Shown in pieces: positions 4,688-16,335 of a stretch of 46,137 nucleotides of DNA. The stretch's first letter is position 1; each line of letters opens with the position of its first letter. The DNA is taken from IMG/VR virus record IMGVR_UViG_644736364_000003. One strand, given 5' to 3'. The position numbers and the translations under genes are program-made. This DNA is from a virus (lineage: Duplodnaviria > Heunggongvirae > Uroviricota > Caudoviricetes). A model generated the notes under the pieces. The model was given only the letters and a program-made list of their open reading frames with translations. It made no database searches and was not told where the DNA came from.

Positions 4688-5380
4688 TTAATTGTGTCGC
4701 TTAAGGGTCTGTGACTGACTGATTAAGACCTTTCCAAAGACCATAAACCGGTGTTCGTTTTCGCTGGTAATTCCCCATTCGCGGTAAATCTGATTATCAG
4801 AAATTACCAGCAGTTTATCAGGTATCATTTGCAGTCGTTTGACGTAAATTTTATCATCAAAACCAAATACATATATACCATCCCCATCAAACTGATTGAT
4901 ACTGATATCAACGAAGATGAGATCTCCTGGCTCAATGGTTGGACACATACTGTCCCCACGAACGTTGATAACTTTAATGTGATTTGCTGGTCGTCCACCA
5001 AACATCGATACAGCATTATCAGTTCTGTATTCAATGGCATGAATCACATCAATGACATCACCGCCCTGGATAAGGCCATTTCCCGCACTGGCACTGACAT
5101 CCAGCATTTCAATACGGAATACATCCTTCACCTGCGTAACATCCTCACTAATACTGTTTTTACATACAGTATTACTTTTGAGGTCTGAGGTAAAGAGATC
5201 AGCAATATCAACACCTAAGCTCCTGGCAATATTACTCAGGGCTTGTTCAGTGAATTGTTTCTGCTTACCTGTTTCGAGGCGCGAGATATTCGCCGCATCC
5301 ACTCCTATTGCTTCAGCGAGATCGGCGATTTTCATGTTCTTCGCCTGGCGAAGTTGTCTGACTCGATTTCCTATGTTCAT
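4688..5380 (-). CDS. cI: Prophage repressor, HTH-XRE plus S24 (LexA-like) peptidase domain
   Basis: 230 aa; N-terminal HTH (IADLAEAIGVDAANISRLETG), Ala-Gly cleavage site (ASAGNG), GDSM serine motif and downstream Lys (YVKRL). Confidence 0.85.
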   Translation of the reverse strand: MNIGNRVRQLRQAKNMKIADLAEAIGVDAANISRLETGKQKQFTEQALSNIARSLGVDIADLFTSDLKSNTVCKNSISEDVTQVKDVFRIEMLDVSASAGNGLIQGGDVIDVIHAIEYRTDNAVSMFGGRPANHIKVINVRGDSMCPTIEPGDLIFVDISINQFDGDGIYVFGFDDKIYVKRLQMIPDKLLVISDNQIYREWGITSENEHRFMVFGKVLISQSQTLKRHN

Positions 5381-5477: not shown

Positions 5478-5738
5478 ATGCAATCACCATTACGGAATGT
5501 GCGTAAGGCGCACGGATTTACTTTGCAGCATGTTGCTGCGGGCGTTCAGGTCAATCCAGCGACGCTGAGTCGTATTGAAAGACTGGAACAAATTCCATCT
5601 ATCGATCTTGCAGAACGTCTGGCCAATTTTTTTAAGGGTGAAATCAGCGAAATGCAGATTCTTTATCCGGCACGTTTTCAATCTAGCCAAAACCAGAATG
5701 GGTTTAAACCACAGGAACAGGAGGTAAGCCGTGGGTAA
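5478..5738 (+). CDS. cro: Cro-like HTH regulator
   Basis: 86 aa; HTH (FTLQHVAAGVQVNPATLSRIE); GGAGG RBS; divergent from cI. Confidence 0.7.
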   Translation: MQSPLRNVRKAHGFTLQHVAAGVQVNPATLSRIERLEQIPSIDLAERLANFFKGEISEMQILYPARFQSSQNQNGFKPQEQEVSRG

Positions 5739-6288
5739 GCATCATTGGAAAGTGGAAAAACAACCTGAGTGGTACGTGAAAGCTGTCAGAAAAACTATCG
5801 CGGCATTGCCTGGGGGTTACGCTGAAGCTGCTGACTGGCTGGATGTAACAGAGAACGCTTTATTCAACCGCCTTCGTGCAGATGGCGATCAGATTTTCCC
5901 GCTGGGATGGGCAATGGTTTTACAGCGCGCGGCTGGCACTCACTACATTGCGGATGCTGTCGCACAATCTGCTGGTGGGGTGTTCGTATCGCTTCCTGAA
6001 ATTGAGGAAGTAGAGAACGCCGATATAAACCAGCGCCTGCTGGAAGTCATCGAACAGATCGGGAATTACTCAAGGCAGATTCGTTCGGCAATCGAAGATG
6101 GGGTCGTGGAGCCACACGAGCAGACAGCAATTAATGATGAGTTGTATCTGTCAATTTCGAAGCTCCAGGAGCATGCAGCACTGGTCTACAAAATCTTTTG
6201 CGCTCCAGAAAAGAGTGACGCCCGCGAGTGTGCAGCTCCGGGCGTCGTGGCGTCGATTGCTTCTGGTTGTGGAGAAACTAACGCATGA
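5731..6288 (+). CDS. CII-like / YdaT-family regulatory protein (putative)
   Basis: 185 aa, GTG start after AGGAGG; position immediately after cro; family assignment from memory only. Confidence 0.4.
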   Translation: MGKHHWKVEKQPEWYVKAVRKTIAALPGGYAEAADWLDVTENALFNRLRADGDQIFPLGWAMVLQRAAGTHYIADAVAQSAGGVFVSLPEIEEVENADINQRLLEVIEQIGNYSRQIRSAIEDGVVEPHEQTAINDELYLSISKLQEHAALVYKIFCAPEKSDARECAAPGVVASIASGCGETNA

Positions 6289-6613
6289 ACAGTTTAACGG
6301 CAAATAACCGTTTGTCGCAACAGCTGGTGGTCAGCGTCGCTGAACACCTGTTGTTACGGCATGAATGCAGATTACCAAATCACCTGGCTGTAAGTAACCA
6401 CAGAGAACTTTACCTGACTGTGGGGGGCGAGTTGTGCAGGAACTTAACCGCTGGTTTCGTGACGGAAGAGGACTTTATGTTCATGTTATTCGTTGGGAGC
6501 CAGAAACACAGCGCGTTATCTATCTTCGCAAAGACTACCAGCATGAGTGCTTTAGTCCTTTGTGGAAATTCAGGCGTGATTTTGTTGAGTGTGAAGGACC
6601 ACCAGCACATTGA
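6285..6613 (+). pseudogene. Small gene apparently frameshifted at a G6 homopolymer (about 6422-6427); intact form would be about 110 aa
   Basis: ATG overlaps upstream stop (ATGA coupling); frame 0 open to 6430, then a protein-like ORF continues in the mod-2 frame (VVQELNRWFRDGRGLYVHVIRWEPETQRVIYLRKDYQHECFSPLWKFRRDFVECEGPPAH) to a stop near 6613. Confidence 0.3.
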
Positions 6614-6721
6614 TTCTGCCATTCCGGGACGTTACACTGTTCAGGCACCTTATAAAGCGGGTGTCGGGATTGGCGTCCTGGAATTGCATACGGCGACAAT
6701 TGGCGCGTTAGCGTCTTTTTT
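6610..6721 (+). promoter_or_regulatory. Leader element copy 1: sigma70-like promoter (TTGATT-17-TACACT) followed by intrinsic terminator hairpin (GGCGC-GTTA-GCGTC-T6); candidate short RNA/attenuator
   Basis: Promoter-like hexamers with 17-nt spacer; hairpin plus T-tract about 75 nt downstream; same architecture conserved in copy 2. Confidence 0.35.
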
Positions 6722-6887
6722 GTTGCTACAACTCAGCTATACCCAAATTATGGTGGGCTGGGTGGGGGCACCGAAAGGTGCGCCGGTTTCCGTATGCGCC
6801 GGTTACGCCAACCCTGCTCAGTTCACCACCAGCGAAATTGGCGTTTCCGGTGGTGGAAGTTATCCATTGCATACGGAGGCTGCCATC

Positions 6888-7433
6888 ATGGCTACGATCC
6901 CAACCCTCACTCAACCTGAAATTGCCATCGTTGATGGTCAGGCTGTTACTTCATCCCTGGCTGTTGCCAACTTCTTCTCCAAACGTCATGACGATGTACT
7001 GAAAAAGATCCGCACGCTTGAATGTTCCGCATCATTCACTGCCCGCAATTTTTCGGTGAGTGATTACACCGATTGCACAGGCCGCAAACTACCTTGCTAT
7101 CAAATAACCCGCGACGGCTTTGCGTTTCTTGCTATGGGTTTCACGGGTAAACGTGCTGCCCAGTTCAAAGAGGCATACATCAATGCCTTTAACCAGATGG
7201 AGAAACAGCTTTCAAAGCCCGCTGTACCGAGCGACGTTGCACATAACGCCAGCGTTCTCTATTCCTACATTTCATCAATTCATCAGGTCTGGCTGCAGCA
7301 GCTTTATCCTATGTTGGCAAAAGCCGAATCTCCGCTGGCTGTTAGCTTGTATGACTATATTAATGATGCTTCGGCGCTGGCCTGCCTCATAAATTTGTCG
7401 CTGAATCCTTCAGAGGTAAGGGGGCGTAAATGA
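6888..7433 (+). CDS. Rha-like phage regulatory protein, copy 1
   Basis: 181 aa from MATIPTL with GGAGG RBS; N-terminal motif (VDGQAVTSSLAVANFF...ITRDGFAFLAMGFTGKRAAQFKEAYINAFNQME) typical of Rha/pRha family. Confidence 0.7.
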   Translation: MATIPTLTQPEIAIVDGQAVTSSLAVANFFSKRHDDVLKKIRTLECSASFTARNFSVSDYTDCTGRKLPCYQITRDGFAFLAMGFTGKRAAQFKEAYINAFNQMEKQLSKPAVPSDVAHNASVLYSYISSIHQVWLQQLYPMLAKAESPLAVSLYDYINDASALACLINLSLNPSEVRGRK

Positions 7434-7475
7434 TCCGGAATATTTTCAAACTGTTTACCAATCGCCACCAGCATA

Positions 7476-7587
7476 TTGATTCTGCAATTCCGGGACGTTA
7501 CACTGTTCAGGCACCTTATAAAGCGGGTGCCGGGATTGGCGTCCTGAAATTCGCACATGCGCATAACCGCGCTTCAGCGGTTTTTTT
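7476..7587 (+). promoter_or_regulatory. Leader element copy 2: promoter-like TTGATT-17-TACACT plus terminator hairpin (ACCGC-GCTTCA-GCGGT-T7)
   Basis: Same arrangement as copy 1; terminator stem differs in sequence but keeps pairing (compensatory changes). Confidence 0.35.
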
Positions 7588-7750
7588 GCGCACGTTTCCT
7601 CACATCCAAATTATGGTGGGGCGTGCAGGGGCATCGAAAGATGCGCCGGGGTCATGTGCGACCGGTTACGCCAACCCTGTACGTCTCACCACCTCTGTGA
7701 TTGGCGTCCCATGTGGTGAGTTTTCAAAATTCGCACATGAGGATGTCACT

Positions 7751-8296
7751 ATGGCAACCACCCCTACCCAAACTCACCCTAAAATTGATGTTATCCATGG
7801 GAAGGCTGTTACCTCTTCTTTGGCCGTTGCCGAATATTTCTGCAAGCAGCACAAAAACGTTATTCAAAAAATCCAGACGCTTGAGTGCTCTGTTGAATTC
7901 ACTGAGCTGAATTTTCAGCCCAGTGATTACACCGATTGCACAGGCCGCAAACTCCCTTGTTACCAAATCACCCGCGACGGTTTTGCGTTTCTTGCCATGG
8001 GCTTCACGGGGAAACGTGCTGCCCGGTTCAAAGAGGCATACATCAATGCCTTTAACCAGATGGAGAAACAGCTTTCAAATCCCTCTGTACTGAGCGACGT
8101 TGCACATAACGCCAGCGTTCTCTATTCCTACATTTCATCAATTCATCAGGTCTGGCTGCAGCAGCTTTATCCTATGTTGGCAAAAGCCGAATCTCCGCTG
8201 GCTGTTAGCTTGTATGACTATATTAATGATGCTTCGGCGCTGGCCTGCCTCATAAATTTGTCGCTGAATCCTTCAGAGGTAAGGGGGCGTAAATGA
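7751..8296 (+). CDS. Rha-like phage regulatory protein, copy 2
   Basis: 181 aa from MATTPTQ; paralogue of copy 1 with near-identical C-terminal half. Confidence 0.7.
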   Translation: MATTPTQTHPKIDVIHGKAVTSSLAVAEYFCKQHKNVIQKIQTLECSVEFTELNFQPSDYTDCTGRKLPCYQITRDGFAFLAMGFTGKRAARFKEAYINAFNQMEKQLSNPSVLSDVAHNASVLYSYISSIHQVWLQQLYPMLAKAESPLAVSLYDYINDASALACLINLSLNPSEVRGRK

Positions 8297-8517
8297 TCCG
8301 GAATATTTTCAAACGGTTTACCAATCATACTTTCCGTTGTCCTCGTCCGGGTCAGTGGTACACCACGCCTGCAGGGCATGTTCTACGTGTTAGCCTGGTT
8401 GACCGTGAATGTCAGAAGGTGATTTGTGAACCGCTGGGCCGTAATTACCGCATCAGTATGCCGCTTATAGCCTTTTGCTCCGGAAAAAACATGAAGCATC
8501 TCGGAGGTGCAGCATGA
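8293..8517 (+). CDS. Hypothetical small protein (74 aa)
   Basis: ORF MIRNIFKRFTNH...; stop overlaps next gene start (ATGA); its first 11 codons are duplicated at 7430. Confidence 0.4.
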   Translation: MIRNIFKRFTNHTFRCPRPGQWYTTPAGHVLRVSLVDRECQKVICEPLGRNYRISMPLIAFCSGKNMKHLGGAA

Positions 8518-9332
8518 GTATGGAGCTGATGGTTAAAGCGATGAAAATTCGAGTGGGTAATCCATTGCGAAAACTGGTTCTGATCAAGCTGGCTGATAAT
8601 GCCAGCGATCAGGGTGAGTGCTGGCCCAGCTACCAGCATATTGCTGACCAGTGCGAGATTAGCAAACGTTCTGTGATGAATCATATTGCGGCCCTTTGTG
8701 AGTCCGGGCTGGTAAAAAAAGTCACCCGGAAAGGTGAAAAAGGTAACTCAAGTAATATCTATCTCCTTCATCTTGATGGTGCAGGAGATTCACTAGGGGG
8801 TAGTGCAAATAATTCACTATCTGGTGCAGCAAATTCACCAGGTAGTGCAGGAGTTGCACCAGGGGGTGGTGCAGGAGATTCACCCAGAACCAGTCACTCT
8901 TTTGAACCAGTCAAAGAACCAGTCAATGAACCAATAGCTGTTGGTGCATCTGCTGATGAGTCTGTGCGAGTTCGTTCAAACCGACCGGAATACTCTCCGG
9001 AGTTTGAGCAGGCATGGCTGGCATACCCCAAACGTGCTGGTGGCAATTCAAAATCTGCAGCCTTCAAAGCCTGGAAAGCCCGTTTGAATGAGGGGGTAAA
9101 ACCCGAAACCATGCTGGAAGGTGTGAAACGCTACGCGGGCTGGGTATCTGCGATGGGTAACAGCGGCACACAATTTGTGAAACAGGCTGTCACGTTCTTT
9201 GGTCCGGATCGTCATTTCGAAGAATCCTGGGAAGTTCCTGCGGTATCTGCAGCCAGACGCGAGGACCCGTACTTCAAAGCCAGTTACGACAACGTGGACT
9301 ACAGCCAGATCCCGGCAGGATTCAGGGGGTGA
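8514..9332 (+). CDS. Replication-initiator-like HTH DNA-binding protein with Gly/Ser-rich linker
   Basis: 272 aa from MSMELMVK after GGAGG; N-terminal HTH (PSYQHIADQCEISKRSVMNHIAALCESGLVKK); lies where lambdoid replication genes normally sit. Confidence 0.5.
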   Translation: MSMELMVKAMKIRVGNPLRKLVLIKLADNASDQGECWPSYQHIADQCEISKRSVMNHIAALCESGLVKKVTRKGEKGNSSNIYLLHLDGAGDSLGGSANNSLSGAANSPGSAGVAPGGGAGDSPRTSHSFEPVKEPVNEPIAVGASADESVRVRSNRPEYSPEFEQAWLAYPKRAGGNSKSAAFKAWKARLNEGVKPETMLEGVKRYAGWVSAMGNSGTQFVKQAVTFFGPDRHFEESWEVPAVSAARREDPYFKASYDNVDYSQIPAGFRG

Positions 9333-14858: not shown

Positions 14859-15566
14859 ATGGCTGTTGTCTGTTCAGTTATCATGGTTTGCTCCCCAATT
14901 AATATTTTTCTTGAAAAGGATACGTTGTCACTTAAGCCAGGCTCAGTTGTTCTGGCCACCAAATGCATCAGGGAGCTTTTCCTTATGCATTATGGCAAAG
15001 TTAAAATTGTCGATATAAGCGAATCCGTCGTAAGTCAATATCTGGAAAGTCAGCATAAGCTGACGAGGACTCGTCTGACTGACATTCCGCTTTACCTGTT
15101 GCTGGAACCCAACAATCCTGCGTTGGCTGCGGCTTTAATTACCAGCCAGGGATTTTCCGGAGAGGCCACGGATATGTTTCTTATGATGGCCTGCCTGTCT
15201 CTGTTTGAAACAGATGAACGGATGTCATTGTTTTTAAGTGGATGTTTATCCAGCATAAGTGCCAAAGTCAGGGCGATAATTCAGACAGATATATCAGCAA
15301 GCTGGACGCTTGGTGCGATTGCTCTACAGTTGCATATGAGTGAGAGTTTGTTAAAGACAAAACTGAAAAATGAAGGGGGCATGTTCAGTCGCTTGTTGCT
15401 GGAAGAGCGGATGCGTGTTGCTGTAAATATGTTATGTTCCCGGCATGGACAGGCTATAGCAGAAAAATGCGGTTATTCAAGCAGGTCCTACTTTATTTCT
15501 GTATTTCACCGCTATTATGGCTTCCCGCCAGACAGATATGTATCCAGGCAAGGGCTTGATTATTGA
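14859..15566 (+). CDS. AraC-family transcriptional regulator (AppY/GadX/YdeO-like prophage moron)
   Basis: 235 aa; C-terminal AraC HTH pair (...YSSRSYFISVFHRYYGFPPDRY); N-terminus MAVVCSVIMVC resembles AppY MDYVCSVVFIC as recalled; low GC. Confidence 0.8.
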   Translation: MAVVCSVIMVCSPINIFLEKDTLSLKPGSVVLATKCIRELFLMHYGKVKIVDISESVVSQYLESQHKLTRTRLTDIPLYLLLEPNNPALAAALITSQGFSGEATDMFLMMACLSLFETDERMSLFLSGCLSSISAKVRAIIQTDISASWTLGAIALQLHMSESLLKTKLKNEGGMFSRLLLEERMRVAVNMLCSRHGQAIAEKCGYSSRSYFISVFHRYYGFPPDRYVSRQGLDY

Positions 15567-15594
15567 TTTTCATCTGATTATTATTTTTTGGCTC

Positions 15595-15670
15595 GGCCCT
15601 TTAGCTCAGTGGTGAGAGCGAGCGATTCATAATCGCCAGGTCGCTGGTTCAAATCCAGCAAGGGCCACCA
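15595..15670 (+). tRNA. ileZ: tRNA with CAU anticodon (Ile2 lysidine-type, or Met)
   Basis: Cloverleaf folds by hand: acceptor GGCCCTT/AAGGGCC, D-arm GCTC..GAGC, anticodon loop TTCATAA, T-loop GGTTCAAATCC, 3' CCA; resembles ileX. Confidence 0.8.
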
Positions 15671-15677
15671 TCACATA

Positions 15678-15754
15678 CCGCCATTAGCTCATCAGGATAG
15701 AGCGCCAGCCTTCGAAGCTGGTTGCGCGGGGTTCGAGTCCTCGATGGCGGTCCA
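15678..15754 (+). tRNA. tRNA-Arg (anticodon UCG)
   Basis: Acceptor CCGCCAT/ATGGCGG, anticodon stem CCAGC/GCTGG with loop CTTCGAA, T-loop GGTTCGAGTCC, CCA end. Confidence 0.8.
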
Positions 15755-15767
15755 TTATCTGTACCCT

Positions 15768-15844
15768 GCGTTATTAGCTCAGCCGGACAGAGCAATTGCC
15801 TTCTAAGCAATCGGTCACTGGTTCGAATCCAGTACAACGCGCCA
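15768..15844 (+). tRNA. tRNA-Arg (anticodon UCU)
   Basis: Acceptor GCGTTAT/ACAACGC (one A-C mismatch), anticodon stem ATTGC/GCAAT loop CTTCTAA, T-loop GGTTCGAATCC, CCA end. Confidence 0.8.
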
Positions 15845-15854
15845 GACTTATTTT

Positions 15855-15886
15855 TCCCGGCTCGCTTTTGCGGGCTTTTTTTTAAA
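15855..15886 (+). terminator. Possible terminator after tRNA cluster
   Basis: Short GC hairpin (CTCGC-tttt-GCGGG) followed by CTTTTTTTTT. Confidence 0.4.
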
Positions 15887-16335
15887 TGTCTCACAATTCA
15901 GACGGTTGACAGTTGTCTGTTTTGCGGGGAGTTTGTTAAAAGAAACTGGCATGGTGAATCCCCCTGTGCGGAGGGGCAATCAGCAACTGGTGTTTTGTCA
16001 CCGACCCTTATCCTTTCTGTGCGGGTTCAGGTGCTGATACTGAACTCACCGGGAGGCACCCGGCATCATGTGCATGATGATACAGATACGCGGCTTTAGC
16101 CCCTCTCCGGAGGGGCTTTCTTGTGGGCAAAAAAAGCCCGAGTGGGTTCGGGCAACAGCATGAGATATACATTTTTATAATCGAATGGATTTTAACCAGA
16201 ATTCATAAGGCTGCGCAACTGCGCGGTCTTTTTCGAATTGCGGGCTGTCGTCTCTCTTCTGCCATTGTCCTGTAACTTCCGGACTTCAGCCCGCTCCTTA
16301 TTTTACTCACAATATTATCCCGGCCGGGAGGATTC

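Follow-up and report, generated by a model that had tools for sequence, protein, structure and literature searches.

The immI region of the phages P1 and P7 contains the c4 antisense RNA with its a1/b1 and a2/b2 sites, followed by icd and ant (Citron and Schuster, 1990). Short complementary boxes determine the specificity of these phages (heteroimmunity). The C4 RNA of P1 was reportedly linked to RNase P by Hartmann et al. in 1995. In phage P4, immunity (CI RNA, seqA, seqC) is described in the literature as relying on a processed small RNA between an upstream and a downstream complementary site, and its outcome is premature termination of the replication operon. In the Gifsy-1 prophage of Salmonella, transcripts of the antirepressor-like gene anrP originate at the isrK promoter; the long isrK-anrP transcript is translationally silent, and AnrP translation increases 139-fold when IsrK is provided in trans (Hershko-Shalev et al., 2016; PMC4825925). 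Downstream of IsrK, Gifsy-1 has a processed RNA, STnc1160, and the authors cite a structural parallel to P4 CI/seqA, without mention of P1 c4 and without calling the intervening RNA a C4 homolog (PMC4825925). Relatives of P4 CI and seqA are detected by the Rfam models C4 and isrK (2023 paper, PMC10111431), and APSE phages have been reported with both isrK and C4 RNAs (PMC7313666). Here, we analyzed a stretch of 46,137 nucleotides (nt) from a virus of the Caudoviricetes (IMG/VR record IMGVR_UViG_644736364_000003); this whole stretch is called the window in the following. In the early-right arm of this lambdoid prophage, recognized from its list of open reading frames (ORFs) and from Pfam, two units of 863-866 bp, A (approx. 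6599-7464) and B (approx. 7465-8328), are arranged in tandem with a repeat spacing of 863-866 bp. Each contains a conserved promoter-like element, a 77-nt RNA ending with a hairpin and T-run, a C4 RNA, and a Rha gene of 181 amino acids (aa). We conclude, with a probability of roughly 0.85, that both units represent complete antisense-RNA immunity cassettes of the P1 immI/P4/Gifsy-1 isrK type, each placed before a Rha-family gene.

The two cassettes consist of the following parts:

6610-6638, plus strand: promoter-like element of cassette A (TTGATT-N17-TACACT), found by regular-expression match
6645-6721, plus strand: IsrK-A, small RNA of 77 nt (Rfam RF01394, 58.9 bits), with box a1 UUGGCGU at 6670-6676 and box b1 GCAUACGG at 6686-6693
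6702-6715, plus strand: terminator stem of IsrK-A, followed by a T-run
6746-6833, plus strand: C4-A antisense RNA (Rfam RF01695, 80.7 bits), with b' loop UUUCCGUAUGC at 6787-6797 and a' linker ACGCCAA at 6805-6811
6838-6879, plus strand: target region of cassette A, with a2 UUGGCGU at 6838-6844 and b2 GCAUACGGAGG at 6869-6879
6888-7433, plus strand: rha-A, Rha-family regulator of 181 aa (antirepressor-like, "Bro network" type; Pfam PF09669, E 5e-31)
7476-7504, plus strand: promoter-like element of cassette B, found by TTGATT-N17-TACACT match and unit alignment
7511-7587, plus strand: IsrK-B small RNA (Rfam RF01394, 62.3 bits), with box a1 at 7536-7542 and box b1 UCGCACAUG at 7551-7559
7565-7582, plus strand: terminator stem of IsrK-B, followed by a T-run
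7609-7696, plus strand: C4-B antisense RNA (Rfam RF01695, 75.1 bits), with b' loop UCAUGUGCGA at 7652-7661 and a' linker at 7668-7674
7701-7743, plus strand: target region of cassette B, with a2 at 7701-7707 and b2 UCGCACAUGA at 7731-7740
7751-8296, plus strand: rha-B, Rha-family regulator of 181 aa (Pfam PF09669, E 1e-32)

The RNA genes were identified by scanning the whole window against Rfam at gathering thresholds. Both IsrK copies cover model positions 1-77 (gathering score 50 bits), and both C4 matches are full-length (gathering score 45 bits). An initial annotation of this locus, prepared from the sequence without database searches, had put forward the promoter-to-terminator elements as possible short regulatory RNAs or attenuators for the control of the Rha genes. 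The size predicted for such RNAs agrees with the 77 nt of IsrK, and the proposal was right in outline, as the elements do lie in the rha control region. It was incomplete, however, since the C4 copies, which are located between the IsrK terminator and the rha start codon in each unit, were missed. The minimum-energy folds of both C4 RNAs reproduce the family structure, in which a long outer stem encloses two hairpins. C4-A folds with -45 kcal/mol (z -3.9; none of 200 shuffled sequences was as stable) and C4-B with -46.5 kcal/mol (z -5.1), and a tail with CACCACC is visible 3' of the outer stem. Within this structure, the 12-nt loop of a hairpin presents b', and the single-stranded linker next to it presents a'.

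The a box is common to both units: a' (ACGCCAA) pairs with UUGGCGU in IsrK (a1) as well as in the rha leader (a2). The compensatory mutants G28A/C162U and G31A/C159U constructed in Gifsy-1 (PMC4825925) fall exactly on this a1-a' pairing. The b boxes differ between A and B, and the changes are matched in all three sites, namely b1 of IsrK, the C4 loop b', and b2 at the ribosome-binding site. The Shine-Dalgarno sequence of rha-A, GGAGG (6875-6879), is contained in b2, and that of rha-B, GAGGA (7739-7743), is overlapped by b2. RNAduplex gives -16.7 (A) and -16.1 kcal/mol (B) for b'/b2, and -10.3 kcal/mol for a'/a2 in each unit. Cognate loop-target energies range from -13.7 to -16.7 kcal/mol, compared to -6.8 and -7.4 kcal/mol for the A loop on the B targets. 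A direct repeat of the window, D6 (7547-7564 and 7727-7744), turned out to be the b1/b2 pair of unit B. With their different b codes, cassettes A and B appear to be largely separate control channels for Rha paralogs with differing N-terminal domains.

A pairwise alignment of the units confirmed the tandem architecture of the initial annotation, with near-identical 3' and diverged 5' parts. The identity is mosaic: 44/46 in the promoter block, 35/36 in the 5' half of IsrK and 23/41 in its 3' half, 63/88 in C4 (88 nt), 29/54 in the a2-b2 leader (the last 54 nt before the ATG), 67% in rha codons 1-56, 91.5% in 7056-7231, and 202/202 in 7232-7433. Differences between A and B concentrate at three short sites, of which one is the 3' half of IsrK, another the 12-nt loop in the second hairpin of C4, and the last the sequence immediately preceding the rha ATG. 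In folds of the 250-nt leaders, b' and b2 form a cis pairing in the minimum-energy structure of unit A; in unit B (7700-7746), C4 stays intact and a local hairpin CCCAUGUGGUG/CGCACAUGAGG is predicted to sequester the rha-B Shine-Dalgarno sequence independently of C4. As these two folds disagree, no mechanistic conclusion was drawn from them.

In order to determine the breadth of the b code, homologous units were gathered from IMG/VR via the conserved a' core. This yielded 106 unique units of 361 nt, the two of the window included; because the search pattern fixed a', this set is uninformative on variation of the a box. Except for two units, which were not parseable, all could be parsed (104/106), and they carry 37 distinct loop (b code) sequences. 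When loops were paired with IsrK b1, the mean energy was -11.5 kcal/mol for cognate and -4.9 kcal/mol for non-cognate combinations, with the cognate partner being the best in its row in 34/37 cases. For the leader b2, the means were -12.6 and -6.1 kcal/mol, respectively (cognate best in 33/37). Perfect Watson-Crick runs are typically 8-10 nt long in cognate pairs and 3-5 nt in non-cognate ones. An identical b code can precede different downstream genes among the homologous units. Beyond the common a box, a second allele matched in all three places (a1 GTGGAAA, a' TTTCCAC, a2 GTGGAAAG) was found in the IMG/VR contigs L126 and L128, and P1 has a third, UUGACAG. In the second cassette of L128, IsrK b1 (CAATATAGA) mismatches the C4 loop, whereas b2 matches, which suggests a recombinant IsrK mismatched to its own C4. 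Another IMG/VR contig, L036, carries two IsrK/C4 cassettes (4099 and 7358) with different b codes 3.26 kb apart, so that a single phage has two codes without a tandem.

The TTGATT-17 nt-TACACT element, which the initial annotation had noticed upstream of both rha genes, was found in both units with 44/46 positions conserved, 278 nt (A) and 275 nt (B) upstream of the rha ATGs. In cassette A, its last base is 7 nt upstream of position 1 of the Rfam isrK match, which places the putative transcription start at approx. 6645, and in P1 the annotated P1c4 promoter has an equal distance from the isrK-like match. A generic sigma-70 scan of 6200-8600 called no promoter at a threshold of 9/12 consensus matches. 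Nevertheless, the element was kept as a likely promoter due to its conservation (44/46) and its spacing to the IsrK start. The hairpin and T-tract after each promoter-like element were recovered as well: IsrK terminators A and B are the two top-scoring terminator-like sites in a terminator scan of the region, and stem A includes one G-U pair. Since indels caused a MAFFT/RNAalifold alignment of IsrK to misplace the terminators, these were checked one by one. A hairpin of at least 5 bp is situated directly before the T-run in 48/48 unique homologous segments, which contain 21 different stem pairs. The covariation seen initially between the stems of just two copies is weak evidence by itself, but this larger sample upholds the pairing. 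The informative signal, however, is not the terminator stems but the three-way match of b1, the C4 loop b', and b2. Hairpin 1 of IsrK displays many compensatory changes (41 homologs).

Compared with the P1 immI region (annotation NC_005856), the cassettes show the same order of promoter (P1c4 in P1), a1, b1, c4, a2, b2, and first ORF, at almost equal spacing. Distances from the transcription start in P1 and unit A, respectively, are approx. +25 and +26 for a1, +39 and +42 for b1, +113 and +106 for C4, +193 and +195 for a2, +222 and +226 for b2, and +240 and +244 for the ATG. C4 of P1 reaches 68.8 bits, compared to 75-81 bits in the window, and has a homologous fold; b2 adjoins or covers a ribosome-binding site as in P1. 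The a1b1 leader of P1 matches the isrK model (35 bits, E 5e-6), including the terminator-like hairpin and the U-run, and reaches 51 bits with the c4-a1b1 model. Judged by its sequence, IsrK is the lambdoid counterpart of this leader. The c4-a1b1 motif itself (Rfam RF03163; Weinberg et al., 2010; PMC2864571) has the same position and holds the a1/b1 boxes, but was rejected for the window with 20.4 bits (E 0.029, 6632-6684) and 21.6 bits (E 0.013, 7498-7550) against a gathering score of 46.7; the window elements appear to be better described by the isrK model. Unlike P1 immI, there is no icd-like ORF between b2 and the regulator, and rha itself starts 8-9 nt past b2. Further, the downstream protein belongs to the Rha family instead of being Ant1/2, the prophage is lambdoid rather than a plasmid prophage, and the a box is UUGGCGU in contrast to UUGACAG.

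With the Gifsy-1 arrangement isrK-orf45(STnc1160)-anrP, the cassettes share an IsrK with its own (here putative) promoter, a presumably leaky terminator, a structured region of approx. 170 nt, and an antirepressor-like gene. However, orf45 ends with ATGA on anrP, whereas the equivalent frame here is fused in frame to rha. Also, the window locus is situated between cII-like and replication genes in the early-right operon, while the Gifsy-1 locus adjoins antQ, and the window has two cassettes with different b codes. The presumed likeness to P4 consists in the position of the small RNA between its two complementary sites, but the downstream site in the window is a Shine-Dalgarno sequence.

In the mechanism we propose, a constitutive sigma-70 promoter would start transcripts at approx. 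6645 (A) and 7511 (B). Most of them would end at the intrinsic terminator and yield the 77-nt IsrK with a1 and b1, as was shown for the homolog in Gifsy-1. Read-through transcripts would carry C4, which is probably released by RNase P as in P1. C4 is expected to pair with a2/b2 of the rha leader, a pairing based on sequence and covariation. With the Shine-Dalgarno sequence lying under b2, this would block translation of rha, possibly together with a Rho-dependent polarity like that of P1. Because its a and b boxes are those of the mRNA target, IsrK would compete for C4, either as a trans-acting decoy, as a second target in cis, or both. Surplus IsrK would thus relieve the block on rha, consistent with the 139-fold activation of AnrP in Gifsy-1. 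Of these elements, the presence of two RNAs per unit, the threefold match of the a/b boxes, and the position of b2 on the Shine-Dalgarno sequence are evident from sequence and covariation. Promoter activity, leakiness of the terminator, activation by IsrK, and a1-a' pairing are known from homologs, and translational repression by C4 from P1.

Several points weigh against this proposal. The promoter-like element matches the sigma-70 consensus at just 8/12 positions, and IsrK alone folds no better than shuffled sequence (z -0.8 and -1.7). The B loop reaches -10.5 and -10.7 kcal/mol on the A targets and the a box is shared, so that cross-talk between the cassettes is possible. The presumed role of Rha, either antirepressor or transcription factor, has annotation as its only source. 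Further, a1/b1 could be a decoy or a termination target like P4 seqA, and the published model for Gifsy-1 invokes a translated upstream ORF (uORF; orf45) and translational coupling instead of a C4 decoy (PMC4825925).

Transferred to the window, the latter model states that a1/b1 pair with the C4 region in cis and thereby close the uORF start, until IsrK in trans breaks this pairing up; ribosomes would then translate the uORF and continue into rha, and a free processed C4 would not be essential. Direct experiments on the homologous locus, i.e., mutants, native gels, and 30S footprinting, speak for such a switch (PMC4825925), and in both units a frame into rha begins with an ATG placed identically in the transcript (6750 and 7613). 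However, the model cannot be adopted unchanged, as the window uORF runs in frame into rha and has no ATGA end. The fate of the uORF is also not conserved: among the 106 homologous units, it is in frame with the gene in 47, stops earlier in 31, is out of frame in 15, and has an ATGA overlap in 7. Neither 6750 nor 7613 is preceded by a visible Shine-Dalgarno sequence. In addition, such a switch would account neither for the complementarity between the C4 loop and the Shine-Dalgarno region of rha (33/37 classes) nor for the conserved C4 fold and RNase P-type features in common with P1. We, therefore, hold it to be a tentative alternative. We are similarly doubtful about a termination mechanism of the P4 type, according to which C4, by pairing with a1/b1 and a2/b2 while the transcripts are being made, would end them prematurely, so that IsrK would mainly be a product of this termination and no regulator in its own right. 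The Gifsy-1 authors note the parallel to P4 CI/seqA/seqC and raise this idea for STnc1160 (PMC4825925), isrK has been equated with seqA relatives (PMC10111431), and 8 nt lie between b1 and the terminator stem of unit A. On the other hand, constitutive STnc1160 together with IsrK strengthened the IsrK effect in Gifsy-1 instead of weakening it (PMC4825925), and the position of b2 on the Shine-Dalgarno sequence points to translation control. That the hairpin and T-run are a plain attenuator which merely limits read-through, with no RNA acting in trans and the second unit being a decaying duplicate, is hardly credible. Both units do have terminators, and RefSeq labels the second Rha gene a pseudogene, but rha-B is intact with 181 aa, cassette B occurs alone in other phages (99.9% identical in L082), and the three-way covariation of the a/b boxes requires RNA-RNA pairing.

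Since two long ORFs of 382 and 288 aa in the ORF list each fuse the leader with rha, we also considered whether the leader encodes protein, in which case long "Ash-Rha" proteins (382/316 aa and 288 aa) would be the real products. Both leaders are indeed open in frame with rha, and in RefSeq the first gene is a "Rha family" protein of 316 or 381 aa including the leader, the second a pseudogene. The translated leader matches Pfam PF10554 (Phage_ASH; 52 bits vs. a cut-off of 26, E 1e-13), and PF10554 as well as the PHROG families 821, 3960, and 4908 match the translated IsrK/C4 leader (6633-6887 and 7430-7750). Moreover, 48/98 units keep the gene frame open over 300 nt or more upstream, compared to 6 and 12 for the other two frames; this is only partly explained, and we attribute it with some reservation to shared ancestry and high G+C. 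However, the supposed coding region contains a promoter, an intrinsic terminator, and two RNAs above the Rfam gathering score. In each unit, the ATG in the 5' stem of C4 (transcript nt 106) opens a 46-codon frame running into rha without a stop, but indels of 1 and 2 nt directly before the ATG break the frame in related units. Neither IsrK (0.75/0.70/0.76) nor the a2-b2 leader (0.58/0.68/0.61) differs notably in variation between the three codon positions, in contrast to the initial 55 codons of rha with their expected third-position excess (0.65/0.44/1.00). A Shine-Dalgarno sequence and ATG are conserved at 6888 and 7751, and in Gifsy-1 orf45 is conserved in nucleotides, not in amino acids (PMC4825925). 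Thus, the frame and codon-position tests revealed no conservation of the leader as protein in homologs, and a protein-coding leader is very improbable. The reading of the leader as a Phage_ASH protein was rejected, as its frame is not conserved and third-position bias is missing; the match is most likely translated RNA. This agrees with the initial annotation, which had regarded the leader-gene ORFs as artifacts. PF10554 and the PHROG families mentioned appear to be built partly on translated RNA genes, which would explain the over-long Rha proteins in RefSeq and the pseudogene call for rha-B.

Both Rha-family genes were verified at the coordinates first given for them by matches to Phage_pRha (PF09669), which cover aa 21-106 with domain scores of 107.5 and 113 bits (gathering score 29.9). 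Rha-A and Rha-B share 33/56 residues in aa 1-56 (59%), 54/59 in aa 57-115, and 66/66 in aa 116-181. The Rha domain matches PHROG 821/518 as well as PHROG families annotated "anti-repressor" and "Ant" (E 9e-32 to 2.5e-19) and others annotated "transcriptional regulator". A near-copy of rha-A (99.4% identical) is present in an Stx2c phage. Despite its RefSeq label, rha-B has a full Pfam match.

The neighborhood of the cassettes and the site at which they are joined contain these features:

4688-5380, minus strand: cI-like repressor gene
5478-5738: cro-like gene
5731-6288: cII/YmfL-like gene
6434-6613, plus strand: DUF4222 gene (Pfam PF13973, E 1e-13; PHROG 1343), upstream boundary of the repeats
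7430-7473, plus strand: tandem junction, the duplicated first 12 codons of the 74-aa gene joined to the unit B promoter block
7454-7473: diagnostic 20-nt junction string TTTACCAATCGCCACCAGCA
8293-8517, plus strand: 74-aa gene (phrog_1153), which follows the cassette in single-unit phages
8514-9332: replication-protein gene

The stop codon of the DUF4222 gene overlaps the -35 hexamer of cassette A, and the start of the 74-aa gene (8293) overlaps the stop codon of rha-B. Further upstream, the 382-codon frame begins at 6285, where its ATG overlaps the stop codon of the cII/YmfL-like gene, and extends across the DUF4222 gene, which lies in another frame; beside this frame, a small real gene in 6285-6433 is possible.

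At the junction, the ATG of the duplicated 74-aa gene start overlaps the stop codon of rha-A as ATGA (7430). The region as such is common: a query of 6285-8520 matches 1823 of 5426 complete E. coli genomes (about a third), Stx-converting phages included. The contiguous tandem of 2236 bp, in contrast, is found in only four genomes, and 12 of the 5426 fully cover a 141-nt query spanning the junction; MS7163 and CEA212U are examples of strains with the tandem. Among the records of the phage collection, the 24 that cover at least 80% of the 6285-8520 query all do so within approx. 1370 bp, i.e., with a single unit. The 20-nt junction string was found in 8 IMG/VR contigs. The same junction joins A to B in the window, B to C in L082, L129-L132, and E. 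coli SCU-172, and A to C in L127, and it is also present in L126 and L128, the cassettes of which carry another a box. Cassette B of L082 is 99.9% identical to that of the window. Cassettes also occur singly, with an identical A leader in phage Ayreon and B in O55:H7 DEC5D. Because both cassettes are found singly and one junction joins at least three combinations, we regard the tandem as a probable rare, still recombining product of cassettes which were already different. The duplication in place with later divergence assumed in the initial annotation is less likely. The 202-nt identical 3' ends of the rha genes fit recent recombination or gene conversion. Starting from the ATG at 7430, a frame of 288 codons runs via IsrK-B and C4-B into rha-B, and the tandems L082 and L133 have the same arrangement. 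Translation of rha-A, reinitiating at this ATG, might melt the second switch and thus pass activation from A to B.

Outside the cassettes, we noted a late region (14859-19569) which has a layout of the Stx-phage type without toxin genes:

14859-15566: AraC-family ORF
15595-15844: tRNA-Met/Arg/Arg
15920-16128: STnc100
16131-16183, minus strand: AsxR
16336-18297: NanS-like esterase, directly after AsxR
18999-19214: holin

The kind of switch described here is already known from IsrK and C4 and from P1 immI, P4, and Gifsy-1, and the two-code tandem is a rare arrangement. New are the corrected annotation of the region, the explicit three-way a/b code with at least 37 b alleles, and the record of the rare two-code tandem. 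In the records examined, the region is annotated just as a long "Rha" protein or pseudogene, and no RNA genes are listed. The b-box code is hypervariable and kept matched in three places. It is conceivable, if rather unlikely, that the tandem forms part of a recombining array of specificity cassettes, in which two RNA immunity codes and Rha variants would silence, or be triggered by, two classes of co-resident or incoming phages of the same code, resulting in RNA-coded cross-talk between prophages of strains with several lysogens. The two codes in one tandem would also suit a specificity-swap experiment. As the cassettes would decide on the production of the antirepressor-like Rha, they plausibly feed into prophage induction, as their homolog in Gifsy-1 does.

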